This document shows positions 301 to 56,112 of a stretch of DNA of 64,000 nucleotides, in pieces. Position 1 is the first letter of the stretch. Each line of letters starts with the position of its first letter. The notes beneath the pieces are model-generated. The model did not search any database. It saw nothing but the letters and a program-made list of their open reading frames with translations, and was not told the DNA's origin. Origin of the DNA: a virus (lineage: Duplodnaviria > Caudoviricetes); the IMG/VR virus record IMGVR_UViG_3300037067_027684, positions 1 to 64,000 of that record; one strand, written 5' to 3'. The translations under genes and the position numbers were made by a program.

Positions 301-374
301 GCGAATGCAGAAGGTGGGAACTTCGACTAGTCTCTAAAACTAGTGCTTAGAGGGTTCGATTCCCTCCATTCGCA
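301..374 (+). tRNA. amber suppressor tRNA, anticodon CTA (334-336)
   Basis: Cloverleaf: acceptor GCGAATG/CATTCGC, D stem GAAG/CTTC, anticodon stem (A)CTAGT/ACTAG(T) with loop CTCTAAA, T stem GAGGG/CCCTC with loop TTCGATT, discriminator A; CCA not encoded. Confidence 0.9.
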
Positions 375-387
375 TTTTGAGGTGTTT

Positions 388-876
388 ATGCCCAGCGAGA
401 CGTGGAGAATACGAAATCACGATAAGATGTGTGCTTATCGTAGAAAGTGGTATAGAAGTAATTCTAAATCTGTAAAGCGAAGATCTAAGGACAGAAGAGA
501 ATTTTTCTTAGAATGGCTATTGGAGATCAAATCGCATTCGAGATGTGAACTATGTCAAGAAGATGTTCAATGTTGTCTTGATTTACATCATGATCAGAAG
601 GATCAGAAGGTTGATGTTATTAGTAGAATTATTTATGATTCTTGTTCGTTAGGTAAGACCATAGATGAGTTTCTAAAATGCGCAATATTGTGTTCTAATT
701 GCCATCGTAAAATTCATAATAACATAGTCAATGTTAGATTACATAAAATAGAAAAGAAATTGATTGACTATACATTCAGATTGGTTTGTGATAATAGACG
801 TAAGAATAATAAATATGTGCCACCATTTCATGATGATATAGACAGGATCATTTTTACAGCAGTTTCAGGCTCCTGA
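388..876 (+). CDS. HNH endonuclease
   Basis: CELC..LDLHH..KCAILCSNCHRKIH; start moved to ATG 388 (GAGGTG RBS) so it does not overlap the tRNA. Confidence 0.8.
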   Translation: MPSETWRIRNHDKMCAYRRKWYRSNSKSVKRRSKDRREFFLEWLLEIKSHSRCELCQEDVQCCLDLHHDQKDQKVDVISRIIYDSCSLGKTIDEFLKCAILCSNCHRKIHNNIVNVRLHKIEKKLIDYTFRLVCDNRRKNNKYVPPFHDDIDRIIFTAVSGS

Positions 877-1168
877 ATATCTTGGAGTCAGCCTTGGGAT
901 GGACGGCTAAAGCAGTATGCTCGTTGTTGCGATCTGGCTCAATAAATGTTTTGAAGTTAATTTCTTTCTCCTTAAGATGATTCTCCCACTTAGCGAGGTC
1001 TTGTTCGTCATTGACTCCGAGTAGGACCATAGTCTTGTGATTATCGGCCCAATCGAGCACCTATGGATCAGGTATGCTGTGGCGGAGTAATTCCGCCACA
1101 GCATGACATGCCTGGACAGCTTGCTGTGATTGAGGCAAGTCTTTACGCACTAACACGTATAACTTCAT
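854..1168 (-). CDS. Pth2-like peptidyl-tRNA hydrolase with in-frame TAG at codon 36 (1061-1063)
   Basis: MKLYVLVRKDL..QAVQACHAV (Pth2 N-terminal motif) - TAG - VLDWADNHKTMVLLGV..FIEPD..TALAV..LKLL in one frame; AAGGA RBS; true stop TAA. Confidence 0.8.
1074..1104 (-). other. perfect 13-bp hairpin inside the Pth2-like CDS, ending 10 nt 5' of the amber codon
   Basis: ATGCTGTGGCGGA-5 nt-TCCGCCACAGCAT. Confidence 0.85.
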
Positions 1169-1472
1169 GTTTAAGTTCCTTATTGATTTTCTCTTCTAAA
1201 TCGACAAGTGCCTTACTGGCTAGTTTGACTACTTCTGGGTATGCTTTCGGGACATGGGCTTTAACTTTTTCGTGGCTTCCTTTGTGAATATGAAGTGCGA
1301 TTAACCATTTGGTTGCTTCTTTTTTCATGCCGATATATTTACTCCATTCCTCAACAGATGATGGGGAAATATATCCTATTTTAGTGTGACTAGCCTCTTC
1401 TTTGATTGAATGAATATTATTAGACAGTAAACGGATGTTGTTCCTAATTGCTTCGTGTACTTCGGGTTTCAT
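1143..1472 (-). CDS. hypothetical helical protein upstream of and overlapping the Pth2-like gene
   Basis: 109-aa ORF, AAGGAG RBS 6 nt upstream, TAA stop. Confidence 0.8.
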   Translation of the reverse strand: MKPEVHEAIRNNIRLLSNNIHSIKEEASHTKIGYISPSSVEEWSKYIGMKKEATKWLIALHIHKGSHEKVKAHVPKAYPEVVKLASKALVDLEEKINKELKHEVIRVSA

Positions 1473-1478
1473 GTTACT

Positions 1479-1526
1479 CTCCTTAACGGTGTTTAGGTTG
1501 GTAGGATCTTAGACCGTGTTAAGGAG
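1479..1526 (-). promoter_or_regulatory. RBS-sequestering hairpin (candidate translational attenuator)
   Basis: mRNA CUCCUUAAC(AC)GGU pairs with ACC-GUUAAGGAG, which contains the RBS of 1143..1472. Confidence 0.75.
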
Positions 1527-1566
1527 GATGCGGTGGAATCTAATAAAAGGGAGGAACCTAACGCAT
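1519..1566 (-). CDS. leader peptide MR*VPPFY*IPPHPP with two in-frame amber codons
   Basis: AGGAG 6 nt before ATG; ATG CGT TAG GTT CCT CCC TTT TAT TAG ATT CCA CCG CAT CCT CCT TAA. Confidence 0.7.
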
Positions 1567-1668
1567 TTTCTTCTCCTAGTCTCAATCTTATCTTTTATCG
1601 GCCTTATTTACGCTTGTAAATTATCTTGTTTTCAGTAATCGTGGTATTTAAATTTAAAGGAGAATATA

Positions 1669-4424: not shown

Positions 4425-4533
4425 AATCAGCCTTTCAAATACTTAATATCACACATACTTCATTAAGAAAGTATTTCTCTAATATTTAAGTATTTTGAAT
4501 ACGATGTATTTTAAGTCACCAGAGGAGACAACC

Positions 4534-5652
4534 ATGTACGGAAAAGGGAAAGTAATTGCTCTTTCAGAGAGAACACTAAAAGAATTTAATATCAATATTA
4601 CAACTTTGGTCACTGGTTCACACCATAAAGTTTATGTTCGTTGCGTGCGATGTGGTGAGGAATTTACTAGAGAATGGAGATACTTGCATCAACTTCACAA
4701 TTGTCCTACATATAAAACGCGAGAAGATGGAACATTACTTAAGTGGTGTAATCATTGTAAGCAGTTCATTACGACTACTATGTTTAACGTTAATCTTGCT
4801 AGATATGATAAATTATCTAGTTACTGTAAAAGTTGTTCAAATCAATGCGTTCATAATCAGAAACAAAATGAACGAAAACAAAATGAAAGGAAAACCAATT
4901 TTAATTCTTGGATTAAAAATTATCTGTGTACTAAAAAAAGTAGATGTAAGAAAGATAGAATACTCTGTGAATTAGACATAGAATCATTGACGAGAAAATG
5001 GAATCAACAGTGTGGTAGATGTTTCTATACTGGTATTAGTCTAGAATTTGCTACTAAGGGTCTTAGAGGCGCGCAACTTGATAGGATTGATCCAAATGGG
5101 GGATATATTCTTGATAATGTTGTTTGGGCTTCACGAGCAATAAATCAAGCTAAAAGTAATGCGACAGTTGGTGATTTCTTAAATTTTTGTTTAGAAGTAA
5201 ACCTAACAAATTTTCTAAATGTCAACGCTCGGCTTGAATGTAAATTGTGTCACCCAGACGCTAAAATTCCATATAGAAAGCGTCCAACGGATGCTGGATA
5301 TGATATAGTTGCTATTAATGGTGGGACCATATTGCCAAATAGGATGTTAAATATTCATACTGGTGTAATATTAACTTGCCCTTCTGGGTACTACATAACA
5401 ATCGAACCGCGATCAAGCCTTTGGATGAAGGGAATTTCGCCTTTCCATGGCATAATTGATGCGACTTATACTGGTGAATTAATGGTTTGTCTTATGAATT
5501 ATGGCTCAGAACCATATGTTATTGAAAAAGGCAATCGTATTGCTCAGTTGATTCTCCACAAGAATATACCGTTCGATATCGTAGAGGTTTCTAGTTTCAG
5601 TCCTGATTATAATGAACGCGGGACTGCTGGTTTTGGTGAATCTGGAGTTTAG
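4534..5652 (+). CDS. dut: Zn-finger/HNH-like endonuclease fused to trimeric-type dUTPase
   Basis: C-terminal dUTPase motifs AGYDI, PRSS, GIIDATYTGE, RIAQL, RGTAGFGESG; N-terminal CxxC pairs and RCFYTG..LDRID..GYILDNV..INQAK. Confidence 0.85.
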   Translation: MYGKGKVIALSERTLKEFNINITTLVTGSHHKVYVRCVRCGEEFTREWRYLHQLHNCPTYKTREDGTLLKWCNHCKQFITTTMFNVNLARYDKLSSYCKSCSNQCVHNQKQNERKQNERKTNFNSWIKNYLCTKKSRCKKDRILCELDIESLTRKWNQQCGRCFYTGISLEFATKGLRGAQLDRIDPNGGYILDNVVWASRAINQAKSNATVGDFLNFCLEVNLTNFLNVNARLECKLCHPDAKIPYRKRPTDAGYDIVAINGGTILPNRMLNIHTGVILTCPSGYYITIEPRSSLWMKGISPFHGIIDATYTGELMVCLMNYGSEPYVIEKGNRIAQLILHKNIPFDIVEVSSFSPDYNERGTAGFGESGV

Positions 5653-8770: not shown

Positions 8771-9286
8771 TTAACTGACTGATTTTGCGAAAGCCATGGC
8801 CATTAATTTGGCGTCTTCTAAATTTTTCGCTTGGAATCCTTTTGGCATATTGCCTTCTAATGAAGAAGGACTGTCTAGTTCATCACCTATTTTATCGCCA
8901 ATTCCATAACCAAAAATGGCTCTGTGACTCCAGCCATAATACTTCTCATCTTTTGGACAGTAGCCAATAGTACAGCAGTTAGAATGTGATGTGCGCATTT
9001 GTGGTTTAATTCCGCGTTTATCGCATATTTCTTTAGCCATGTTTGGATCACCAACTAGATCACCCTCTTTGGTATATGCATTAATAATTTCTAATGGTTC
9101 TGCATTAGGTGGTCCATGCTCTCCTTGATCCCATAATTCAGTCCGTAATTCATATCCATTATGTGGTTCGATCTTAAGTACCTTGATGAGGGTAAAATCT
9201 TCGGTTAGATAGTATCTGCCTAAGGCATTGTCCAACAATCTTTTGAAGCTTCCTTTTGGTGGGGCAGTTTCATATAAAATGACCAT
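8771..9286 (-). CDS. conserved phage hypothetical protein
   Basis: IGY...KYYGWSHRAIFG..AMAFA motif; late motif 4 nt before ATG. Confidence 0.7.
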   Translation of the reverse strand: MVILYETAPPKGSFKRLLDNALGRYYLTEDFTLIKVLKIEPHNGYELRTELWDQGEHGPPNAEPLEIINAYTKEGDLVGDPNMAKEICDKRGIKPQMRTSHSNCCTIGYCPKDEKYYGWSHRAIFGYGIGDKIGDELDSPSSLEGNMPKGFQAKNLEDAKLMAMAFAKSVS

Positions 9287-9289
9287 ATA

Positions 9290-10255
9290 TTATATTTGCA
9301 GAATATGTGGTGAGATTTTTTCAAATTTGCGCCTAAGATATCTAAGAGAATTAAAATACAATATGCTTGCAATTTGGTTTGCTTGTGAACCTGTCCAGTA
9401 CACAGCATATATCGGACCATGTTTGCATGTTCGATTATTTGACAACACCATGCCGCACTCATTTTTAACTAATCGTCTAAGATGATATTTTACCCAATTC
9501 ACAACACATTCATACTTGTCGCAAAACCCCATGCGCAGATATTTTTGGTTGTGAGTCACAATGCCATCACCATCCCAAAGGCCACGTAAGAAATGTTTCA
9601 TATTAAGATTATTGATTTTGAATTTTTTAATTCTACCTGTTTTGAAATCAAACCAATGGTTTTTCCTATAAAAATCAGATAATTCTTTATTATTAATAAC
9701 CATATAACCACGACCAAACCATTTGCCTTGACATTTGATCATGGATTTTTTAGGTGGTATTGTGCTATTAAGATCCTTACTTAAATGATAAAGATGACCA
9801 ATATCTTTAACAGCAAGAGAGCATCGTATTCGATGTCTGTTTGAATATAGGTGACCATCTGCCAACAAAAAACCAAACCAATATGCTCCGATTTCGGAAG
9901 ACAAATCTTTAAGTCTAAAAACATCGATCTGGAATTTTCGTTGGCGTAGACTTCGATTTCTAATTAATATGCCTTCTTTAATCAAAGTATTTCTAATTAA
10001 AAATGGTGAGCATTTAAATCTAGAAGCTATTTTATAAGTACTTTGGCCGTCTAAGTATAGTTTACGAATCATACTTGTATTATTGATTTTTTTAATTGAT
10101 TTTGGTCTTATCTTAATATTATACTTAATCAGAATATTCTTAATGGTTGTCCAATCTTTATGATACTTGAATCCTAATTTACTCATTCCTATGCCAGATA
10201 AATAATCATTTATGATCTGGTTATTTATCCTATTTTGATCCTCTAATAACATCAT
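9290..10255 (-). CDS. LAGLIDADG homing endonuclease with N-terminal HTH repeats
   Basis: WFGFLLADG and FLRGLWDGDG. Confidence 0.9.
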   Translation of the reverse strand: MMLLEDQNRINNQIINDYLSGIGMSKLGFKYHKDWTTIKNILIKYNIKIRPKSIKKINNTSMIRKLYLDGQSTYKIASRFKCSPFLIRNTLIKEGILIRNRSLRQRKFQIDVFRLKDLSSEIGAYWFGFLLADGHLYSNRHRIRCSLAVKDIGHLYHLSKDLNSTIPPKKSMIKCQGKWFGRGYMVINNKELSDFYRKNHWFDFKTGRIKKFKINNLNMKHFLRGLWDGDGIVTHNQKYLRMGFCDKYECVVNWVKYHLRRLVKNECGMVLSNNRTCKHGPIYAVYWTGSQANQIASILYFNSLRYLRRKFEKISPHILQI

Positions 10256-41994: not shown

Positions 41995-43575
41995 ATGCGG
42001 TGTTTGGAACACCTAATCGAACAAATAATCAAAAAACCAGAGAAATTGGTTGTATCTGATTCTTGTAGGGTTTTGATTAAGTGTAAGAATTGTGATAAAA
42101 TCAATAATGTTGGAACAAGGAATCTTAAACGAAAGTGGGGAGATGGACCATATCTTTGTAAATCATGTCACATTAAGACTTATATTGATAATCCAGAAAG
42201 ATTGAAGAAATTTCAGAAATCATTAGGAGAGGCTTTACAAAAACCTGAAGTTAGAAAGAAACTATCTAATAATGGTAAATTAGCATGGTCCAACCCAGAG
42301 ACATCAAAAAGAATTAAAGAAGCAATCTCAGAAGGTCATCGTAGTAATCCTAAAATGATTGCCGCTCGTGATAGGGCACACAAAGCTTGGATGCAGAAAT
42401 ATGGAATAGATAAGATGTTGGCGATGGCTGATCTAGGACATGAAGCAATCAAACAAAAATGTGTGCAGAGCCAAGATTTCAGGAATTTATTAGGTAAGAA
42501 CTTTCATATTGACGACCCAATGGTTATGGAGAAAGTTAGGAAATCTCCAGCATTTCTTACTAAGGAAAAATGGCAAGATCCAGATTTTCGTAAGAGAATG
42601 GCCAACATTATAACTAACCAACCAAGAGTAAGTGGCATACAACGTAAATTATATGAAATTTTAGACGATTTGGGGGTTAATTATCAAAAAGACACCCAAA
42701 TTGGTTTTTATTCTGTTGATTGTGTAATTCCCAAACAAAAAGAGATGGCTAAATCAATTATAATAGAAGTACAGGGTGATTATTGGCATAATATCCCAGC
42801 AACTATTCAAAAAGATAAGACTAAATCAGAATATCTGATGAAATATTATTCTGAATATGATCTTAAATATCTCTGGGAACATGAATTTAGAAACGAAAGT
42901 AGAATTAGAGAATTATTGAAATATTGGATTAACGGTGAGTCAGAGTTAATTGCTTTTGATGTTAACAATGTGGTTGAGCGAGTGGTTAACAGACATTTGG
43001 CTGAGGAGTTTGTCGGAAAATATCACTATGCTGGTCGTCTGGGCACTAGCCAATTAATGCTTGGCTATTATCTTAAAGAAGAACTAATATCAGTTATAGT
43101 TTATGGTTATCCAGTAAGACAAGAGACAGCAACACGGTTAGGTGTTGAACCACATCAAGTTCTTGAATTAAATAGGTTGGCTATCTCGCCTAAATATCAA
43201 ATCAAAAATTTAGCGAGTTATGTGATTGGTAAGTCAATTAGACATTTAAAACATAATCGTAAAGACATAATTATATTAGTATCGTTTTCTGACACAACAC
43301 ATAATCACATAGGCACCATTTATAAAGCTAGTAATTGGAAGTTTGATGGAACGATTGACGCAGATTATTGGTATAAAGATCAAGATGGATTTGTTTATCA
43401 TAAGAAAACTGTGTGGAACAAAGCTAAAGCAAATAATTTGACAGAAGTACAATACTCTGAGAAGACGAATTTGATCAAAATTTGGGGTAAACCAAAACAT
43501 AGATTTGTCTATGTCTTAGACAAATTAAAAGTCAAAATTACAAATGTACTGGGAGACACAAGATGCCTACCATAG
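41995..43575 (+). CDS. DUF559/Vsr-like endonuclease fused to Mom-like DNA-modifying GNAT domain
   Basis: YSVD..IEVQGDYWH..KD..K..LWE; then KYHY, ELNRL, SFSD...H.GTIYKASNW..G. Confidence 0.8.
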   Translation: MRCLEHLIEQIIKKPEKLVVSDSCRVLIKCKNCDKINNVGTRNLKRKWGDGPYLCKSCHIKTYIDNPERLKKFQKSLGEALQKPEVRKKLSNNGKLAWSNPETSKRIKEAISEGHRSNPKMIAARDRAHKAWMQKYGIDKMLAMADLGHEAIKQKCVQSQDFRNLLGKNFHIDDPMVMEKVRKSPAFLTKEKWQDPDFRKRMANIITNQPRVSGIQRKLYEILDDLGVNYQKDTQIGFYSVDCVIPKQKEMAKSIIIEVQGDYWHNIPATIQKDKTKSEYLMKYYSEYDLKYLWEHEFRNESRIRELLKYWINGESELIAFDVNNVVERVVNRHLAEEFVGKYHYAGRLGTSQLMLGYYLKEELISVIVYGYPVRQETATRLGVEPHQVLELNRLAISPKYQIKNLASYVIGKSIRHLKHNRKDIIILVSFSDTTHNHIGTIYKASNWKFDGTIDADYWYKDQDGFVYHKKTVWNKAKANNLTEVQYSEKTNLIKIWGKPKHRFVYVLDKLKVKITNVLGDTRCLP

Positions 43576-46544: not shown

Positions 46545-49184
46545 ATGGATATTCGAAAATTTTGGGGAAAAGCTGATAATTCGTTATTTTGGCATCCAGC
46601 GTTATACCATATGATTGATAGTGGTATGGTTGCTAAAGTGTTGTTGAATACTTTGCCAATTAAAATGACCAAAGTACTTACTGATGTTTACACAATAGAT
46701 CAGTTGGCCTATTTTGTTTCTTTGCATGATATTGGTAAGATCACGCCAGGGTTTAATTTTAAGATTTTAGAAGGACGATCAGCCAAATCTTTTGGTTTTT
46801 TGGCGAATCTAGCCGCAGATGAAGGACAATGTGACGCTTCAGATTGTTTACTCTCAAAGGAGTGCTGTTTCTGTAAGAATACAAATAGAAAATATTCTGG
46901 AATGAGTAAAGAAAGTAAGTGGCATAATTTTGGTACCGCTAAAATTTTAAGGGATTTTGGGCAAATAAGAAAAATATTGGGAGCGCATCATGGAACCTTT
47001 TTGACTAATATTAATGATTGCAATATAGGATGTGATAGTTGGTTAATGGCGCAGAAACAGGCTATTAAAGATTTACAGGAAATTTTCATTAAAGACCAAA
47101 CTCCAGTTATCAAGACATTTCAGAATGATTTTATTATGATCTTTGCTGCTTTCGTGGCTATTGCGGATTGGATTAGTTCTAATCAAGATTATTTTAAATG
47201 TGTCAATACTGGAAAGGTCCAGACACACACAATTGAGGAATATGCCATAATATCAGAGAAAATTGCTTCAACAGCAATTGATTCTCTTAATTGGAATTTT
47301 CAACCACATGCTAAAAAGCACGATTTCATAAATTTATTCGGAGTAAAGCCCTATTCTTGGCAAAAGAAGCTTATTACTAAACTCAACAGCCAAAAGAAAC
47401 CATTTCTATTGTTAATAGAAGCACCAACTGGTTGTGGTAAAAGCGAAGCTGCAATGAGCGCTGCTGATATCGCAGAAGCTAAGTTTGGGTATCATGGAAC
47501 GTTTTTTGCTCTTCCCACGCAGGCAGCATCCAATCAGATGTATGGGCGATTTGGACTATTCTTAAAGAATAGACCTTACGGCAACAATTATAAGCCCGAT
47601 TTCCATTTACGTCACCATTTGTCCTTTATGGATCAAGAATATAGAGAAATTAAAAGAAAGACAGTAGAGGGCATATCTAGTGATGTTCTTGCGACTGAAT
47701 GGTTTACAAGATCCAAACAAGGATTGCTGTCGCCATATGCGGTCGGGACCATAGATCAAGCTATTATGGCCGGATTAATGATCAAGCATAACTTTGTAAG
47801 AATGTTTGGTCTACTCAATAAGGTTGTGGTTTTTGATGAAGTTCACTCCTATGATGTGTATTCGAGTAATATATTATATCGAATAATAGAATGGTTAAGT
47901 TATCTTGGTACTTCTGTTGTTGTTCTTTCTGCGACTCTACCGAGACAAAAAAGGAATGAATTAATTAGTTCTTATTGTGGGAAACCAATTAAGACTAGGG
48001 TTAAATATCCTCTATTTGCAGTTGCCAACGAAGATAAAGTTACTTTTAGTCACATTGATTGTCAGAGATATAGATCAATTCGTTATAAGTTTATTGATGA
48101 AAAAGATCTAATTAAGAGGGTTCAAGTACAATTAAGCAGGAATGTAAACGTAGCAGTGGTTCGAAATATTATTGGTGAGGCCCAAGATACTTTTAGATCA
48201 CTGCGAGATTCTTCTGTTGATTGCTCATTGTTTCATGCACGTTTTCCAGCTTATAGACGACGAGAAATTGAAGAGCTTGTTGTTAGGAAATACTCCAAAG
48301 ATAGTAAAAATAGACCCAATAAGTCATTGTTAGTTGCTACTGATGTGATTGGTCAGAGCGTGGATCTGGATTTTGACGTTATGTTCACGGATATAGCTCC
48401 AATCGATATTATGTTGCAGAGGTTGGGTAGGTTATGGCGGCATGATCGTAAGCGTTCGATTAGAGTTCCTACCTTATATGTCATTAGGAAGAGTAGAGAC
48501 TACGAATTTGGAAAAAGTGAAATCATTTATAGTAAATTTATTTTAGACAACACGATGAAAGTTCTTCTCGATAGGTTCAAGACTGGCCAAAACACAATCA
48601 ATAAAATCGATGACGTTGAATTACTGATAAATGGAGTGTACGATGGTAAAATTGCCTCATTAGAAGATGACCCAGAATATCAGAAATCATATGGAAAATA
48701 TCTAAATCGAATACTTGGAAGTAAAATTTTGGCGGGTGAATTTAGGATACCAAGATGTAAAATTGATAGTAATGATTTTATGGCGAGTTTTGGTGACTTT
48801 TTTGATGTTGAAGAGGGTGAATTAACTTTCCCAACTACGAGACTTAAATTGCCGTCAATTCCTATAATTTGTGTTGATTGGAAGGACGGTTCTGAGATTT
48901 CTGTTGACGGTCAAGTTATTAATATAAGTAAAGAACCAGAGTTTGAAGAAATTAAATTACTACTTACAAGATCTGTTAATATTATGATTCAGCCTTGGTT
49001 TAAGTACTTTAGTGATCAGGCTAAAATCAACGGATGGGAAGATACTATTCTTGATCGTTATAGAATTGCAGTATTCGACCAAGAGAGATATGATAACGGT
49101 GAACGATATAAGTTCTTAGTTAACGAGGATGGCGCGATGTTGAGTTTGAATAATATTTTTGGATTGGAATCGAGAAATGTATAA
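46545..49184 (+). CDS. cas3: Cas3 HD nuclease-helicase
   Basis: LHDIGK, AHHG, IADW, APTGCGKS, VGTIDQ, DEVH, SAT, FHARF, QRLGRLWRH. Confidence 0.96.
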   Translation: MDIRKFWGKADNSLFWHPALYHMIDSGMVAKVLLNTLPIKMTKVLTDVYTIDQLAYFVSLHDIGKITPGFNFKILEGRSAKSFGFLANLAADEGQCDASDCLLSKECCFCKNTNRKYSGMSKESKWHNFGTAKILRDFGQIRKILGAHHGTFLTNINDCNIGCDSWLMAQKQAIKDLQEIFIKDQTPVIKTFQNDFIMIFAAFVAIADWISSNQDYFKCVNTGKVQTHTIEEYAIISEKIASTAIDSLNWNFQPHAKKHDFINLFGVKPYSWQKKLITKLNSQKKPFLLLIEAPTGCGKSEAAMSAADIAEAKFGYHGTFFALPTQAASNQMYGRFGLFLKNRPYGNNYKPDFHLRHHLSFMDQEYREIKRKTVEGISSDVLATEWFTRSKQGLLSPYAVGTIDQAIMAGLMIKHNFVRMFGLLNKVVVFDEVHSYDVYSSNILYRIIEWLSYLGTSVVVLSATLPRQKRNELISSYCGKPIKTRVKYPLFAVANEDKVTFSHIDCQRYRSIRYKFIDEKDLIKRVQVQLSRNVNVAVVRNIIGEAQDTFRSLRDSSVDCSLFHARFPAYRRREIEELVVRKYSKDSKNRPNKSLLVATDVIGQSVDLDFDVMFTDIAPIDIMLQRLGRLWRHDRKRSIRVPTLYVIRKSRDYEFGKSEIIYSKFILDNTMKVLLDRFKTGQNTINKIDDVELLINGVYDGKIASLEDDPEYQKSYGKYLNRILGSKILAGEFRIPRCKIDSNDFMASFGDFFDVEEGELTFPTTRLKLPSIPIICVDWKDGSEISVDGQVINISKEPEFEEIKLLLTRSVNIMIQPWFKYFSDQAKINGWEDTILDRYRIAVFDQERYDNGERYKFLVNEDGAMLSLNNIFGLESRNV

Positions 49185-50595
49185 TCTTTTAGAAGAAAAA
49201 TGGATTACGGTGCAGACCCAAAGGGGAGTGAATAAGGTTTCTTTAGTAGAGTTGATTGAGGATGCACATGAGATTTTAGACGTAATTGACAATCCTATAG
49301 TACGAGTTTCAATTTTGAGAGTTGCTTTGTCTATATTATATGAACAGTATCAAATTAGAACTAGTAAGCAGTGGATTAGTCTTTGGAATAAGAGTCGATT
49401 CGACCGAACTCTTTTAGATAAAAAGAAATTTGAATTGTTTGATGATAAAAAGCCATTTTATCAATCGGTTGGTGTTGTTGAACAGAAGAATGCATTTACT
49501 ATCCAGCCCCATTTGGGTGGTAATAATGTTATTTTCTTCAATGATCCACAGAAATTGCGAAGTTTGACTTATGAGGAATCAGCAAAATGGTTGATAACCC
49601 ATCAAATGTGGGCCGTTTGTATGCCGAGCAAAGGCAAATATCTGAAGAATAGTATTTTAACCGGGGGTGTTGTCTTGATTCTTGAAGGTAGTAATTTATT
49701 TGAAACTCTAATGTTGAATATGCTATGTGGTGACCATGTTGGAAACCCAATATGGAGCAGAAAAGAAAATAGTGGATTACTTGACTTGTTGACTTGGCGT
49801 TCTAGAAGCATGAGATTGATATCTGATAATGGAGTTGTTCGAAAAATTGACTATGCTGATGGTGACGAGATTCCTGAGGGTATAGATGATTCGATGCTTG
49901 TTTATGTGATGCGGAAAGGTGAAAAACAAAAATTAACTCTTAATCATGAAAAACAGCTGTGGCGAAATTGTGAGGCTCTTTTTGCAGCAGAAAATAAAGA
50001 TTGTTCGTTGGCACTGAAGCAATTTATAAATTTGTTAAACATGGATTCTGTTCTGGAAGTTACAAATGAAAGATTTAAAACTTTGGAGAAGAGATTCTCG
50101 ATTACAGCAATGATAATCACAAATACCGCGAAAGTACAACACTATGTCTACCAAACATTTCCTATTCCAGAGATGTTCTTTGATCCATCAAAGAGTGAAA
50201 GTAAGAGGGGTGAAATAGGGGCTATGTTACGGAAGGCCAATGAGCTATCTAGGATAATCCGTTTTAATTTCTTGAAGCAAATGAATATTAAAGCGAAGCG
50301 TGGTAAAAGAATTGTGATTGATGGTTACTTAATGGAATATTGGAATATGTTGGAGGTTCCCTTTATGAATTATCTTTCAGACAAACTCAATATGGAACAA
50401 TTTATTGAATTATGCTTTAGGACTACTAATAAGGTTGTTAATAAGATCGTGTCTGATTATTGGAGTGAAGATGCTTTTAAGTTCGTCAAGCTTTGTGGTT
50501 TTGGTATCAGTGCCTTGAAAGAAGGAGAAAAGGTCGATGGAACAAAATCAAGAAATGATATTTCTAAACAGGCTGAAGAGTTTAAAGAAGGATAG
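49177..50595 (+). CDS. cas8e: Cas8e (Cse1/CasA)
   Basis: YNLLEEKWI, FELF...PFYQ, G.NLFETL.LN, LTW.SR; position after cas3. Confidence 0.9.
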   Translation: MYNLLEEKWITVQTQRGVNKVSLVELIEDAHEILDVIDNPIVRVSILRVALSILYEQYQIRTSKQWISLWNKSRFDRTLLDKKKFELFDDKKPFYQSVGVVEQKNAFTIQPHLGGNNVIFFNDPQKLRSLTYEESAKWLITHQMWAVCMPSKGKYLKNSILTGGVVLILEGSNLFETLMLNMLCGDHVGNPIWSRKENSGLLDLLTWRSRSMRLISDNGVVRKIDYADGDEIPEGIDDSMLVYVMRKGEKQKLTLNHEKQLWRNCEALFAAENKDCSLALKQFINLLNMDSVLEVTNERFKTLEKRFSITAMIITNTAKVQHYVYQTFPIPEMFFDPSKSESKRGEIGAMLRKANELSRIIRFNFLKQMNIKAKRGKRIVIDGYLMEYWNMLEVPFMNYLSDKLNMEQFIELCFRTTNKVVNKIVSDYWSEDAFKFVKLCGFGISALKEGEKVDGTKSRNDISKQAEEFKEG

Positions 50596-50965
50596 GGGTG
50601 CTTTGGCCAAGTTACGTAGAAGCGGCATTGACAGTATCTCAATATTGGCCGATGTACTTCCACGGGATTGGAAGCAAAAATGGTTTTTATTGGTGGCCGA
50701 GTGTTGGGCCGACAATACTAGAGATGGTGGTAGACTTGCTCTTGTTTGTAGAAATTTGAAAATCAACGAAAATAGGTTTAAGGTTTTGGTTTTTAGTGAT
50801 AGAGAGGAATTACCTCAGAGATTGAAGTCGATATTACGAATAATCACACAAAAGGGTTCTGGAGTTAATTGGTCTTGTTTGCTGAATGATCTGATCTATT
50901 GGGGTGAGAGCATTCAGAGAGAGTGGGCGATGGATTTTTGGACAGGAGAAAAGTCACATGAGTAA
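50537..50965 (+). CDS. cse2: Cas11 (Cse2/CasB)
   Basis: DRGALAKLRR, RF..L, VNW..L..DL..W, WAMDFW. Confidence 0.9.
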   Translation: MEQNQEMIFLNRLKSLKKDRGALAKLRRSGIDSISILADVLPRDWKQKWFLLVAECWADNTRDGGRLALVCRNLKINENRFKVLVFSDREELPQRLKSILRIITQKGSGVNWSCLLNDLIYWGESIQREWAMDFWTGEKSHE

Positions 50966-52091
50966 ATTCATTAATATCCACATCATTCACAATTATCCGG
51001 TATCATGTCTTAATCGTGATGATGCTAATACACCAAAAGATTGCGAGATTGGTGGTTATACACGTGCTCGGATCTCTAGCCAATGTCTGAAGAGAGCCGT
51101 TCGATTTCATCTTGGTGGTGAGTTTTCACTTGGGACACGATCACGCCAATTCCCACAACTTCTAATTAATAAACTTATTGCCTCTGGTAAAAACCAAGAT
51201 GCTACCAATAAGCTTGTTGGTCGTGCTTTTGATGCTTTTTCGAGCATGATTAAAGATAAGAGTGATGAAGAGGAAAACACTGTCGAAGAAAACACAGAGG
51301 AACAGAAGTCTGTTTTGTTACATGTCCCTCCGCTCTACGATCAGAAGCTTGATGAAATTTCTAAATTTATATGTGATAACTGGGATAGTCTCAAAGCAGT
51401 TGTCGTAGAATCTAAAGGCAAGAAGACAAAGAAATGGAATCCTAAAAAAGATACCCCTGATTATGAATTAAAGAAGCATATGGAGAAGTTTGTTGGAAAC
51501 CCACAAGACGCTGTTGATATTGCTTTGTTTGGAAGAATGCTTGCCAGCAACACTGATTTTACAGTTGATGGGGTGTGTTCAGTCGCGCACGCATTCTCTA
51601 CAAACAAAATCAAGAAAGATACTGATTTCTTTACTGCGGTTGACGATCTAAGTCATGATTCTGGCGCTGGTATGATGGGGAATATTGATTTCAATAGTGC
51701 TTGTTATTATCAATTTGCTACTGTTGATTATACTAGGTTATCTGAGTTAATGGGGAATGATTCAAAGAAAATTGCTTTGGCCTGCGTTAATGCTTTTGCT
51801 AAGGCAAATCCTTCTGGTAAACAGAATACGATGTGTGCATTAACCCCACCTGATTTTATTTTGGTTGCTATTGGTAATCAGCGTTTGTCATACGCCAATG
51901 CTTTTGTTAAACCTATTCGTCCCGATGAGAAAGATCTTATTACTAACTCAATTGAAGCGTTGATTAAAGAATCTGACTCATTAAAGACGTTCTTTAATCC
52001 GGTTATTTGTTCTTGGTGTCGCTCGATGCAGATAGCCAATTCTGTTTCTGATTATGGTGCTTTCATGACTCAGGTTGGAGAACAATTGTAA
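50958..52091 (+). CDS. cas7: Cas7 (Cse4/CasC)
   Basis: SCLNRDD..PK, RARISSQCLKRA, DIALFGRMLA, DFFTAVDD, PSGKQN. Confidence 0.95.
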   Translation: MSKFINIHIIHNYPVSCLNRDDANTPKDCEIGGYTRARISSQCLKRAVRFHLGGEFSLGTRSRQFPQLLINKLIASGKNQDATNKLVGRAFDAFSSMIKDKSDEEENTVEENTEEQKSVLLHVPPLYDQKLDEISKFICDNWDSLKAVVVESKGKKTKKWNPKKDTPDYELKKHMEKFVGNPQDAVDIALFGRMLASNTDFTVDGVCSVAHAFSTNKIKKDTDFFTAVDDLSHDSGAGMMGNIDFNSACYYQFATVDYTRLSELMGNDSKKIALACVNAFAKANPSGKQNTMCALTPPDFILVAIGNQRLSYANAFVKPIRPDEKDLITNSIEALIKESDSLKTFFNPVICSWCRSMQIANSVSDYGAFMTQVGEQL

Positions 52092-52750
52092 TGGCCACTA
52101 TTCTATTGAGAATTAAAGCGCCATTTCAATCTTGGGGTTACCAAGAGAGCACTCATATTAGAGATACCAATAGATATCCTACCAAAAGTGGAATAATTGG
52201 TTTGTGTTGTGCGGCGATTGGGAAACCAAGAGAAGAAACTCCTGATTTCCCAACTTTAGTTGAGTTTGGTGTTCTGAAGATGGGCGTTAGAGTTCTTAAT
52301 TTTGGCTCTAAGATGAGAGATTTTTGTACGGTCGGTAGTGGTATCAACAAGCCTACCTTGGATACTGTGTTTGATAGTAAATGTACTACCAAAAGAAAAG
52401 AGGCTATTATCATAACTAAATATTATTTGGTTGGGGCCGATTTTTTGGTTGCGTTGGAAGGTGATAATGTTTTGTTAGGGCGCATTAAAGCTGGTTTTTT
52501 GAATCCTGTTTTCCCACTCTTTTTTGGTCGTAAAAATTGTCCTCCTGCTTGTGATATTTTAGTGGGTGTTTACGAATCTGGCTTGGTTGAAACGCTGAGA
52601 GATGCAGTTGTTGATGTTGATAAACCAGAAAATCTTTTTATTTTAGAGAGTAACACTGGAGTTTTGGTTAATGATGTCCCATTGATTTCTCGTGAATTTG
52701 GTGTTCGTAGAGTTGTGGAATGTTCTTTGGAGGAATTATCATGTTCCTAA
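52091..52750 (+). CDS. cas5: Cas5e (CasD)
   Basis: APFQSWG, PTKSGIIGL..AA.G, YL..ADF, FGRK.CPP. Confidence 0.95.
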   Translation: MATILLRIKAPFQSWGYQESTHIRDTNRYPTKSGIIGLCCAAIGKPREETPDFPTLVEFGVLKMGVRVLNFGSKMRDFCTVGSGINKPTLDTVFDSKCTTKRKEAIIITKYYLVGADFLVALEGDNVLLGRIKAGFLNPVFPLFFGRKNCPPACDILVGVYESGLVETLRDAVVDVDKPENLFILESNTGVLVNDVPLISREFGVRRVVECSLEELSCS

Positions 52751-53304
52751 CTCAGATTCAGGTTAATAATTCTCGTATTCTTGGTGATATTTATGGGGTC
52801 CATCAGAAGGTGATGGCATTTGTGGACTCTGAGGAGAGGGTTCTTTATCGAGTTGAGACCGATGACTTTCCTCGAATCCTTGTTCTTTCTGAGGACGAAC
52901 CTAGTAATAAAGTTGATTGGGGTAAGGTAATTATTAAACCATATAATCCTATTATTGCTGTTGGTAGACGATTTAGGTTTAGGTTGTTGGCTAACCCTAC
53001 GCATGTGGTTTCAGTTGGTGGTCATAAGAGGATTAGGATGTTTTTGAAGATCGAGGATCAAGAGAATTGGATTAAAGAAAAGGGCAAGAAATCTGGTTTT
53101 AAGGTTCTAGATCATGTTTTGGTGATAGATAATGGATTTTGTAAGATCAAGAAGCAGTCTGGTTTTGAATGGATCACTAGATCAGTTCTGTTTGAGGGTG
53201 TATTGGAGGTTTCTGATAAGAATTTGTTTTTGTTTAATTTGTTTAATGGGATCGGTCGTTGTAAGGCTTTTGGTTTTGGTTTACTGTCGATTGCTGCTCT
53301 TTGA
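52741..53304 (+). CDS. cas6e: Cas6e (Cse3/CasE)
   Basis: FRFRLLANP, FEGVLEV, GIGRCKAFGFGLLS. Confidence 0.95.
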   Translation: MFLTQIQVNNSRILGDIYGVHQKVMAFVDSEERVLYRVETDDFPRILVLSEDEPSNKVDWGKVIIKPYNPIIAVGRRFRFRLLANPTHVVSVGGHKRIRMFLKIEDQENWIKEKGKKSGFKVLDHVLVIDNGFCKIKKQSGFEWITRSVLFEGVLEVSDKNLFLFNLFNGIGRCKAFGFGLLSIAAL

Positions 53305-53377
53305 TAATCGAATACTGATTAAACGCTTTAACACCACTGATTGTGTTTCTTATTGCTGCGACATACAATCAGTTGGT

Positions 53378-53998
53378 GTCTTTCCCGCGTAAGCGGGGAT
53401 AAATCGACGATGTTAGATGATGGGCGGAATTTTAGGTCGTCTTTCCCGCGTAAGCGGGGATAAATCGGCGGAACAGATTGACTATGCCGCACCAAAAATG
53501 TCTTTCCCGCGTAAGCGGGGATAAATCGCAATCGCAGTCGGAACTACCTTCTGCACAGACGTCTTTCCCGCGTAAGCGGGGATAAATCGATGGACAAGAA
53601 GATTGACCAGTATCACGACTCGTCTTTCCCGCGTAAGCGGGGATAAATCGTATCCGGCTATTCGTTGTTCGATTTGTCGTGAGTCTTTCCCGCGTAAGCG
53701 GGGATAAATCGGCTCAGGTCTGGAAGGCTCGATTTAGGCATCCGTCTTTCCCGCGTAAGCGGGGATAAATCGCACCCTCTCGCCTAGCGGGGTGTTGGAT
53801 CGTTGTCTTTCCCGCGTAAGCGGGGATAAATCGCCCTGTAGGTCACAGAAGAGATCCGCACCGGCTCCCGCGTAAGCGGGGATAAATCGATGATGGAATC
53901 AGATCAAGTGAAAAGCTTGATTCCCGCGTAAGCGGGGATAAATCGGAGAGACCGGATAGGGCTTATACTTCGGTGGAGTCTCCCGCGTAAGTGGGGAA
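53378..53998 (+). CRISPR. type I-E array: 11 repeats (8 full 29-nt GTCTTTCCCGCGTAAGCGGGGATAAATCG, 2 lacking the first 5 nt, 1 degenerate terminal) and 10 spacers of 32 nt
   Basis: repeats start at 53378, 53439, 53500, 53561, 53622, 53683, 53744, 53805, 53866, 53922, 53978. Confidence 0.97.
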
Positions 53999-54026: not shown

Positions 54027-55184
54027 ATGTCGAGTATTCCATTAGCCACACGTATCCGACCGAAAACTCTCGCTGAGATAATTGGACAACAGCATATTTT
54101 AGGAGAAGATAAACCATTATTTAAAATGATTAAGGATGATAGAGTAAGTTCGATAATTTTCTACGGCCCAAGTGGTACTGGTAAGACAACACTAGCAGAA
54201 GTAATCTCAAAAATTACAAAACGCAATTTTGTTAAAATGAATGCCGCTAACTGTGGTGTTAAAGAAATTAGATCATTGGCTGAAAAAGCAACAATGACTG
54301 GAATCAGTACAGTATTGTTCCTAGACGAATGTCATAGAGCTACGACTGTATTGATGGACACGCTACTGCCGTTTATTGAGAATGGAGTGTTTGTATTCAT
54401 TGGCGCAACCACTGAGAATGTCTACCATTCATTGACATCAGCATTACTATCAAGATGTCAAGTGTATGTTCTGGAATCATTGTCTGAGACTGAATTAACC
54501 ATGATTATGTTAAGAGGTGTCGAATATTATCGATCAATTAAAAAAGAGGTTAGTCTTGATCCTGAAGCTGTTAAACACATAATTCGTGTTTCTTGTGGCG
54601 ATGGTCGTAAGGTTCTGACTATTCTTGAAATGTTGGTTGAAATTGGTGGTGCATTAGACATTACTCTTGAATTGGCTAGAGCAGTTGCTCCGTCGAAATA
54701 TGTTGTGTATGGAGAAAGTTTGAAGTATGATTACGCTTCTTGGGAGCAGGGGGCGCTTCAAGCTTCAGACCCCGACGCTGCGATTTATGCTCTAGCTAAA
54801 TGGCTTGAATCGGGGGAGGACCCGAGATATATAGCGAGAAGAATAATTATTTCTGCGAGCGAGGACTGTGCTAGTTCTCCATTTGCAGCGATGCTTGCGC
54901 ATTCAGCCTATGTTGCCGCCTGCGAAATAGGAAGACCAGAATGCGATATAGTTCTAGCTCACGCAGTCGTAACTATTGCTACTAGTAAACGTGATAAGTC
55001 AGCGGCAGTAGCGATTTGGTCTGCTCTTAAGGATATCAAAGAAGGTATTGACGTAGCTGTCCCGAAGGAATTGCGAGATTGCCATTATAAAGGCTCTGAG
55101 AAACTTGGCCATGGTGCTTATCACGATGGTATGAATCAATCAGCATATGTAGGTATTAACAAGAAATATTATAAGCCATGGTAA
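54027..55184 (+). CDS. rarA: replication-associated recombination protein A (MgsA/RarA AAA+)
   Basis: PLATRIRPKTL, GPSGTGKTT, FLDECHR, IGATTEN, ALLSR, GDGR, GEDPRYIARR..ASED. Confidence 0.95.
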   Translation: MSSIPLATRIRPKTLAEIIGQQHILGEDKPLFKMIKDDRVSSIIFYGPSGTGKTTLAEVISKITKRNFVKMNAANCGVKEIRSLAEKATMTGISTVLFLDECHRATTVLMDTLLPFIENGVFVFIGATTENVYHSLTSALLSRCQVYVLESLSETELTMIMLRGVEYYRSIKKEVSLDPEAVKHIIRVSCGDGRKVLTILEMLVEIGGALDITLELARAVAPSKYVVYGESLKYDYASWEQGALQASDPDAAIYALAKWLESGEDPRYIARRIIISASEDCASSPFAAMLAHSAYVAACEIGRPECDIVLAHAVVTIATSKRDKSAAVAIWSALKDIKEGIDVAVPKELRDCHYKGSEKLGHGAYHDGMNQSAYVGINKKYYKPW

Positions 55185-56112
55185 ATTCTTTATACCTTTG
55201 ATGTTTCCTATCAAGACATCTAATTGGATCATGCCAAATCCAATTGGCTAATCGTAATGCTTTTCGACAAGAGCAAGTTATCTTGGTAATACTACCAACT
55301 GGATAAGGCCCATTCATTCTCATGTTAATTTTATTGTCGATTAATGATAATAATTCGGAACCAAATGAATTATAAGTGATTGCGAATCCAATGATCAGAT
55401 TATTCTTTCTATTTCTCGTGATATATCCATCGCCGTCCAAGAAACCACGCACAAAATGATCATGATATTTAATTTTTGGTATGTGTTTCTTATATTCTTC
55501 TCCTGGGCAAAGACCATATTTAGCTAATATGTCACATAAATATATGTTGCTTAACTGAATTGCGTCATAATGGAAACCGCGTGAGTCAATATAATGTTTT
55601 ATGATTGATGTTGGTAAAGATAGATCATTAACGAACATTTCAAGCCATGCTCTATCCTTAGCAGCAAGACGAATACCCAACACACTTGGATAATTACCAC
55701 GATTACGAATATGACCATCAGCGTAGATGAATCCAAGATAATAACAGCCAATTTGGTCCATACTCGTAAAGTGAGTTAAATCGGGGTTATGTTTTCTAAT
55801 TTTATCAGCAGCGATACAGGTAGCCTCAAATCTCGTTTTTGAGAGTCCCAATTTATTAAGCCGATAACAAATCGAACGTTGATTAATTTTAAATTTCTTG
55901 CTTAATTCGCATGTGGTAAGATGGCTATGTTTAATTAATTCTTTATCGGTAAATGGTTTCTGGATATTTTCTCGTTTGAGTTTCCACTTCTGACATAGAC
56001 GTTGAATTGTCCATCGTTGGGTCCCAGTAATTCTAGCTATCTCCTTCTGTGATTGACCATTGTAAAACATCTTAACTATTTCGTTATGCTTACTGTGGTG
56101 TAGTACAGTCAT
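55156..56112 (-). CDS. LAGLIDADG homing endonuclease
   Basis: YLGFIYADG and FVRGFLDGDG. Confidence 0.9.
   Translation of the reverse strand: MTVLHHSKHNEIVKMFYNGQSQKEIARITGTQRWTIQRLCQKWKLKRENIQKPFTDKELIKHSHLTTCELSKKFKINQRSICYRLNKLGLSKTRFEATCIAADKIRKHNPDLTHFTSMDQIGCYYLGFIYADGHIRNRGNYPSVLGIRLAAKDRAWLEMFVNDLSLPTSIIKHYIDSRGFHYDAIQLSNIYLCDILAKYGLCPGEEYKKHIPKIKYHDHFVRGFLDGDGYITRNRKNNLIIGFAITYNSFGSELLSLIDNKINMRMNGPYPVGSITKITCSCRKALRLANWIWHDPIRCLDRKHQRYKEFTMAYNISC

Follow-up and report, generated by a model that had tools for sequence, protein, structure and literature searches.

Phage tRNAs with a CUA anticodon are usually labelled tRNA-Pyl in standard-code genomes and left unexplained (e.g. PMC11242549). 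One such tRNA is found in the first 64 kb of the IMG/VR virus record IMGVR_UViG_3300037067_027684 (Caudoviricetes; 246,684 bp, ca. 91% complete), from a virus that occurs in groundwater and landfill samples; these 64,000 nucleotides are the stretch analyzed here and are referred to as the window. On the other strand, two overlapping genes, encoding a small helical protein and a protein of the Pth2 fold, are preceded by a short leader with two in-frame amber codons, and the Pth2-like gene (pth2) contains a third. What do the ambers do, and is the tRNA what reads them? We suggest that the leader acts on translation as an ON switch and gauges stop-codon readthrough, that is, the outcome of the contest between the suppressor tRNA and the release factor, and we put the probability of this reading at roughly 0.78.

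The leader and the hairpin that follows it lie on the minus strand. The leader open reading frame (ORF; 1519-1566) is comprised of 15 codons and an ochre stop, M R TAG V P P F Y TAG I P P H P P TAA, and starts at an ATG (1566) located 6 nucleotides downstream of a Shine-Dalgarno sequence, AGGAG (1573-1577). A preliminary description of the locus had noted this spacing, two amber-(Val/Ile)-Pro-Pro units and a final His-Pro-Pro-stop, and the minus-strand sequence bears all of this out. The first amber (gate 1, 1558-1560, codon 3, followed by GU) ends a two-codon minigene, Met-Arg, of the lambda bar type; the second (gate 2, 1540-1542, codon 9, followed by AU) is kept in the closest relative, L007. 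The end of the leader, His-Pro-Pro-UAA (1519-1530, with the final Pro-Pro at 1527-1522 and the ochre at 1521-1519), is a putative slow-termination site on the 5' arm of the hairpin, and His-Pro-Pro-stop recurs in the closest relatives. As in stall-coupled attenuators, the regulated gene is preceded by a leader ORF with its own ribosome-binding site (RBS). A search of both strands of the 246,684-bp genome for ATG-x(0-8)-TAG...Pro-Pro-stop finds a single match, at the leader. In L007, with 87% nucleotide identity in the next gene, the leader differs by three synonymous changes only, both ambers are retained, and the changes in the hairpin fall outside the stem. Contigs aligned to the region showed strain variation only, and among the sequencing runs listed as containing it, none was of RNA.

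To see how far the leader is conserved, we searched with the Pth2-like protein and obtained ca. 140 loci, 118 of them non-redundant. The 98 loci with enough flanking sequence were scanned for an RBS and Met-x(0-8)-stop, followed by Pro-Pro or Gly/Ser-Pro, just upstream of a small gene; alignments A3 and A4 were too variable to serve these scans. Comparison of the upstream regions of homologs, named in the preliminary description as a check, finds the leader retained in 62 of the 98 loci, compared to five of 434 control stretches (five equal-sized controls), and at least one of these five control matches, L002, is a true leader moved away by inserted genes. Further leaders missed by the automatic scan are visible by eye. 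Among long loci, the scan detected the leader in 41 of the 59 that have a suppressor tRNA and in one of the 11 that have none (Fisher p 0.0003, indicative only). The gate is at codon 3, directly after two sense codons, in 44 of the 62 leaders, while the codon preceding it varies widely (25 different codons); double gates are common. The leader design thus appears, from these comparisons, to be shared by dozens of distant phages. The Pth2-like genes of XacN1, D479 and others have no leader, and we found no cultured phage matching a small protein of the main family. In mycobacteriophage Bxz1 (L147), a frame starting with RBS-Met-Phe-UAG-Val ca. 380 nucleotides upstream of gp154 reaches the Pth gene, and a CUA tRNA is located downstream; as Bxz1 is in culture, it might allow a test of a related gate. 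Five other loci (L077, L083, L085, L089, and L090) carry paired odd tRNA-like genes with unusual anticodon loops 75-260 nucleotides upstream of pth2; they have neither the leader nor a CUA tRNA, and the pairs are possibly another variant of the module.

The tRNA (301-374, plus strand; ARAGORN, Rfam RF00005) is the only one in the 247-kb genome. It has the CUA anticodon of an amber suppressor, an atypical C8 and no encoded CCA. The label tRNA-Pyl given by ARAGORN follows from the anticodon alone; in Rfam, the match is to the generic tRNA model, and the bodies of related CUA tRNAs are ordinary and heterogeneous. The tRNA is located 480 bases past the end of the operon, on the opposite strand, and therefore is not co-transcribed with it. 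The genome uses the standard code and does not show the features of UAG-recoded, code-15 genomes, as reading UAG as sense does not increase the coding density in the window (87.9% with code 11, 87.2% with code 15) and UAG terminates 78 of the 389 genes in the genome. No clear readthrough targets beyond pth2 were found among the UAG-ended genes, and the phage genome encodes neither a release factor (PF00472 is absent) nor EF-P.

The same anticodon prevails in the related loci: CUA tRNAs are found near the Pth2-like genes in 57 of 70 loci with long flanks, and the next commonest anticodon in 10. In 51 of 83 loci, the tRNA follows the Pth2-like gene within 600 nucleotides and on its strand. All 56 leaders near a CUA tRNA are gated by UAG. 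Locus L065, with a leader otherwise nearly the same as that of UAG-gated L081, has two UAA gates and a UUA tRNA; a UAA gate and a UUA tRNA are also present in L151, Prevotella phage Lak-B1 from a UAG-recoded clade; and L046, inspected by eye, has a UGA gate and two UCA tRNAs. Hence, there is no mismatch between gate and anticodon (56 UAG/CUA, 2 UAA/UUA, 1 UGA/UCA). This match between sequences is, in our view, the strongest evidence suggesting that the leader reads suppression by the neighboring tRNA. The CUA tRNAs share no identity elements in the acceptor stem or at the discriminator position (roughly A 34, G 24, U 20, C 5), which speaks for a tRNA that probes the contest with the release factor rather than for a special amino acid. 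A purine followed by U is found after the first gate in 49 of 62 leaders and after the amber of pth2 in 23 of 30 genes, but after only six of the 78 true UAG stops of the genome.

Beyond the gates, we looked at the Pro-Pro site. In 45 strict leaders, the first proline codon is CCT in 29, CCA in 10, CCG in 5, and CCC in one, and the second is CCT in 24, CCA in 13, CCG in 5, and CCC in 3. The proline codons are often outside the stem, which in many loci does not start until the stop has been passed. As the proline codons vary synonymously, and as the L007 leader differs only at synonymous sites, the comparison indicates that Pro-Pro is kept as a peptide. Which kind of stall it may cause is another matter. 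The RAPP-like motif invoked in the preliminary description is not present in this leader, as the final motif is Pro-His-Pro-Pro-UAA, with neither Arg nor His two residues before Pro-Pro (for the RxPP motif and the RAPP peptides ApdA and ApdP, see PMC10951233). RxP(P) is found in 24 of 61 family members, and other members have RGPP, RAPP, or RSPP without a stop; the split between 17 RxPP leaders without a stop and 36 leaders with Pro-Pro-stop is partly built into the search pattern and is not counted as a test. The inner Pro-Pro pairs carry the amber-decoded residue at the Arg position of RxPP, so a suppressor inserting Arg or His would turn 1552-1560 and 1531-1542 (minus strand) into R/HxPP motifs, although such inner X-Val-Pro-Pro or X-Ile-Pro-Pro motifs are not general in the family. 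On the other hand, Pro-Pro, Asp-Pro, and Glu-Pro before a stop are described as slow-termination contexts (Hayes et al., 2002, as reviewed in PMC3985003), and none of the genes in the genome ends in Pro-Pro. The end of the leader therefore fits slow termination after Pro-Pro better than an arrest of elongation. By analogy with the contexts given in PMC3985003, stalling would be expected at Pro-Pro-UAA.

The preliminary description had placed CCT CCT TAA in the 5' arm of a hairpin with the AAGGAG of the next gene in its 3' arm, and both folding and covariation agree with this. The 5' arm is at 1513-1527 and the 3' arm at 1479-1490 (minus strand); the latter holds the RBS (AAGGAG, 1484-1479) of the ORF that starts at 1472. 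The pairing of 1527/1526-1513 with 1490-1479 has an energy of -12.8 kcal/mol (z -2.8), and none of 200 shuffled sequences was equally stable. Across the nine closest loci, 91% of the stem is paired, and changes are seen on both sides; in particular, a UAA-to-UGA change, at the middle base of the leader stop, is compensated on the opposite arm. The hairpin z-score is below -2 in 46 of 61 loci. As far as sequence comparison can tell, the hairpin is kept as an RNA, and folding models and covariation place its 5' arm under a stalled ribosome, as in attenuators. In the models for this locus, the RBS is unpaired with a probability of 0.02 in the free RNA, 0.00 with a ribosome on the first amber, and 0.01 with a ribosome on the second, compared to 0.44-0.47 with a ribosome on Pro-Pro or the ochre. 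Given this pairing, a ribosome paused at an amber would leave the operon off, and readthrough of both gates would be needed. We also applied a simple ribosome footprint model, calculating the cost of opening the downstream start region with the A site on the first gate or on the proline site. In 58 of 61 loci, the cost is lower with the footprint at the Pro-Pro site and high at the first gate; the median changes from 11.2 kcal/mol at the first gate to 3.7 kcal/mol at the proline site, and only the positions are informative here.

The first regulated gene (1143-1472, minus strand) encodes an all-helical protein of 109 amino acids and overlaps the start of the Pth2-like gene. No family was found for this protein in Pfam, PHROG, PDB sequence, and ESM Atlas searches. 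The structure models of the protein and of a main-family member are confident (predicted local distance difference test, pLDDT, 94.5 and 92.7, respectively) and have the same order of four helices, while Foldseek, VIA-align, and atlas structure searches returned generic helical-hairpin matches only (best Z 8.3 and 7.8). A counterpart occupies the same place in most related loci. The profile homology between the small-protein subfamilies is weak (hhalign probability 18%, E 0.0014), and therefore their homology rests mainly on position and architecture. In two loci, the small protein is fused in frame to the Pth2-like protein (L064:3665-4291 and L127:473-1033), which suggests that the two probably act together.

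The Pth2-like gene (854-1168, minus strand; PF01981, E 3e-13) encodes 104 amino acids on readthrough of a UAG at codon 36 (1063-1061), in the context Asp-Pro-UAG-Val. The profile match (50.4 bits, cut-off 23) covers residues 1-102, i.e. the whole domain, and the profile also matches the solved Pth2 structures 2zv3, 1rzw, and 1q7s. The amber is not a sequencing error, as it is present in independent assemblies (L007, L008, L009, and L091). It is found in 30 related genes and follows Asp-Pro or Glu-Pro in 18 of them, a context that should hinder RF1 and favor readthrough. Since pth2 itself requires readthrough, the output of the operon can only rise with suppression. In L150, L132, L070, L060, L055, and L075, the amber of pth2 is at codon 3 or 4 (of the type Met-Thr-UAG-Ile), resembling a leader gate shifted into the gene. 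A strong hairpin inside the coding sequence of pth2 (1074-1104, minus strand; perfect 13 bp, z -4.7) ends ca. 10 nucleotides 5' of the amber. It is kept in ca. 10 relatives by changes in both arms and across a one-codon indel in the loop, and some of these changes are nonsynonymous (His to Asn or Tyr, Arg to Gly). We considered this hairpin as a required readthrough element and rejected it, as it occurs both with and without the amber, and ambers occur without it.

Taken together, these features suggest the following sequence of events. A ribosome starting on the leader would meet UAG after two codons. If RF1 wins, the dipeptide would be released or drop off, and the hairpin would keep the next RBS shut. 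Should charged tRNA(CUA) prevail at the two UAGs, the ribosome would reach His-Pro-Pro-UAA and terminate slowly; dwelling there, it would cover the 5' arm of the hairpin, and the freed RBS would allow the 109-residue protein to be made. The Pth2-fold protein would then be made by coupling, after a third readthrough at its own UAG. With three gates in series, the output could be a steep function of the suppressor-to-release-factor ratio. The idea that the switch is shut without suppression and open once the ribosome reaches the prolines was already put forward in the preliminary description, and it gains support from conservation, from the covariation of gate and anticodon, and from footprint modeling. 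That readthrough, stalling, and opening of the RBS take place in cells is what we infer from these data.

What would such a switch be for? The prfB gene, which encodes RF2, is autoregulated by competition at an internal UGA that is bypassed by a +1 frameshift. As in prfB, an internal stop would raise the output of a gene related to translation whenever release factor is scarce; unlike in prfB, the bypass is in frame and by a dedicated tRNA, the gates are in both the leader and the gene, and the product is not a release factor. Extending the analogy, the likeliest purpose, although this is the weakest step of our reading, is that the tRNA serves as a probe of termination capacity and the products as a kit for peptidyl-tRNA recycling or rescue when termination lags. 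It is conceivable, though improbable, that the trio goes further and forms a release-factor-independent system of termination and rescue, in which the tRNA would take the chain at an unserved stop, and the Pth2-fold protein and its helical partner would free it. The leader and the amber of pth2 would then provide negative feedback: with few proteins, readthrough would yield more of them, and with enough, the chain would be released. If true, this would make sense of a trio that stays together, of a tRNA whose amino acid does not matter, of the stop swaps, and of the altered Pth2 site.

Several observations weigh against the readthrough switch. The tRNA is atypical and low-scoring (36.8 bits with RF00005, gathering score 29), and may work poorly. 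The promoter scan detected no sigma-70-like promoter above chance near or upstream of the leader. About one third of the suppressor-bearing loci have no leader by the automatic scan, although many of them have one by eye. The loci are related, so the counts are not independent events and the p-values can be only indicative; moreover, the search pattern was fixed after the first matches had been seen. A footprint on a hairpin arm cuts the opening cost by construction. Finally, alignment to 2zv3 and 1rzw reveals that the canonical catalytic lysine is absent from the Pth2-like protein, which has a two-residue deletion and Gln instead; other polar residues (Gln, His, Glu, Asp, and Thr) show little or no variation. 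Because the Gly-Lys segment of archaeal Pth2, which carries the catalytic lysine, is missing, the protein should not be taken for an active hydrolase.

Among other explanations, the one that fares best, while still unlikely, is a timer or positive-feedback latch: the leader would report the accumulation of the tRNA, and the two proteins would strengthen suppression, for instance by blocking RF1 or keeping the tRNA charged, as a code-switch module. Modules changing the code have been proposed for recoded phages (bioRxiv 2021.08.26.457843), and the tRNA placed closely after the Pth2-like gene on the same strand in most of the loci permits a feedback loop. However, the tRNA here is on the opposite strand and not co-transcribed, the genome uses the standard code and has no clear UAG targets beyond pth2, and Lak-B1, where UAG is recoded, uses UAA in its module.

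The preliminary description had also linked the leader to the drop-off seen with lambda bar. On that reading, the leader would be a sensor of peptidyl-tRNA hydrolase (Pth), with drop-off from the minigene, peptidyl-tRNA(CUA) included, and arrival at the leader end would depend on the Pth and EF-P of the cell. Minigene drop-off and its dependence on Pth are established (PMC8012679), the operon encodes a Pth2-fold protein, and this leader carries early Pro-Pro pairs. Of the drop-off idea, the two-codon form of the minigene has stood, being conserved in 44 of 62 leaders, whereas the last sense codon varies and the Pth2-like protein lacks the canonical catalytic lysine. Moreover, most leaders have no early Pro-Pro pairs, and by this logic Pth would be made only when Pth is already sufficient. 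We consider such a sensor improbable.

The anatomy ties higher output to readthrough but does not tell in which state the switch rests. Hence, the leader could also be an OFF switch, or a sentinel for tRNA damage, with suppression as the default and loss of the tRNA to host anticodon nucleases or tRNA-modifying toxins shutting down an unwanted operon, which would suit a genome with other counter-defense genes (Tad6, type I-E CRISPR-Cas). We give this little credence, as constitutive strong suppression would lengthen the 78 UAG-ended genes, and a tRNA-recycling protein would be useful when tRNAs are attacked rather than when they are intact. Lastly, an RNA-only element, with CCU CCU UAA kept as an anti-Shine-Dalgarno sequence, the peptide and ambers incidental, and the hairpin opened by a protein or temperature, is very hard to sustain: although CCU CCU pairs exactly with the RBS here and in the closest relatives and CCU is the commonest proline codon in the family, 16 of 45 first and 21 of 45 second proline codons are not CCU, the stem often starts past the stop, the L007 leader differs at synonymous sites only, and 62 loci retain the RBS, ATG, frame, and gate, with the gate tracking the anticodon of the tRNA.

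The output side of the readthrough switch resembles known systems. Like SecM-secA, MifM-yidC2, ErmCL-ermC, CruR, and ApdA/ApdP (PMC10951233), it has a short leader with a proline-rich, putative stall site on the 5' arm of an RBS hairpin and would be turned on by a dwelling ribosome. Unlike in the SecM or ErmCL type, the input would be arrival at the stall site, set by in-frame stops and a cis-encoded suppressor tRNA, and not force, a drug, or a metal; unlike the RAPP peptides, the leader has no RxPP. With TnaC and other Pro-stop stalls (PMC3985003), it would share a stall at a stop after proline, Pro-Pro before the ochre in the leader and Asp-Pro before the amber of pth2, but TnaC acts on Rho-dependent transcription termination, while the leader would act on translation start, with no small-molecule inducer evident. 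Similarly to lambda bar minigenes, it has a two-codon ORF with a good RBS and a link to peptidyl-tRNA hydrolase; the difference is that the stop here would be meant for readthrough, a conserved peptide and a hairpin follow, and the last sense codon is not conserved. Code-15 phages (crAss-like, Lak) also have a phage tRNA(CUA) and in-frame UAG as a layer of control (bioRxiv 2021.08.26.457843); in contrast, the genome considered here uses the standard code, and its only evident UAG targets are the leader and pth2. Neither peptidyl-tRNA hydrolase nor a leader of this kind is mentioned in that survey of recoding, and our literature search found no description of a leader gated by a suppressor tRNA. 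Therefore, the output mechanism, a stall opening an RBS hairpin, is known, while an input made of in-frame stops that a dedicated suppressor tRNA of the phage decodes is apparently unpublished.

The window also carries genes outside the switch. An HNH endonuclease gene (388-876, plus strand; PHROG matches) sits between the tRNA and the Pth2-like gene; it is missing from L007 and looks like a recent insertion beside the tRNA. Other genes include a dUTPase (4495-5652, plus strand) behind a fused N-terminal cysteine-rich endonuclease-like region of ca. 250 residues; Tad6, an inhibitor of type I Thoeris (8771-9286, minus strand; PF25188, E 3e-36); two LAGLIDADG-like homing endonucleases (9290-10255 and 55156-56112, both on the minus strand); and a Mom-family DNA-modifying protein fused to a restriction-endonuclease-like domain (41995-43575, plus strand). 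At 46545-53997, we found the type I-E CRISPR-Cas interference genes cas3, cse1, cas7, cas5, and cas6e, with an array of 11 repeats and 10 spacers. Neither cas1 nor cas2 is among the tested neighboring ORFs, and the spacers match neither the rest of the genome nor the fetched related loci.

If the readthrough switch is what we take it to be, it supplies the CUA tRNAs of standard-code phages with a natural target and a control circuit, and makes stop-codon readthrough an input of a riboregulator. The purpose of these tRNAs becomes testable, and the leader itself could be used as a ready-made 100-nucleotide reporter of suppression efficiency. The locus also draws attention to a new pair of phage proteins in translation, and is of interest for the question of how suppressor tRNAs may be gained by phages ahead of full recoding.
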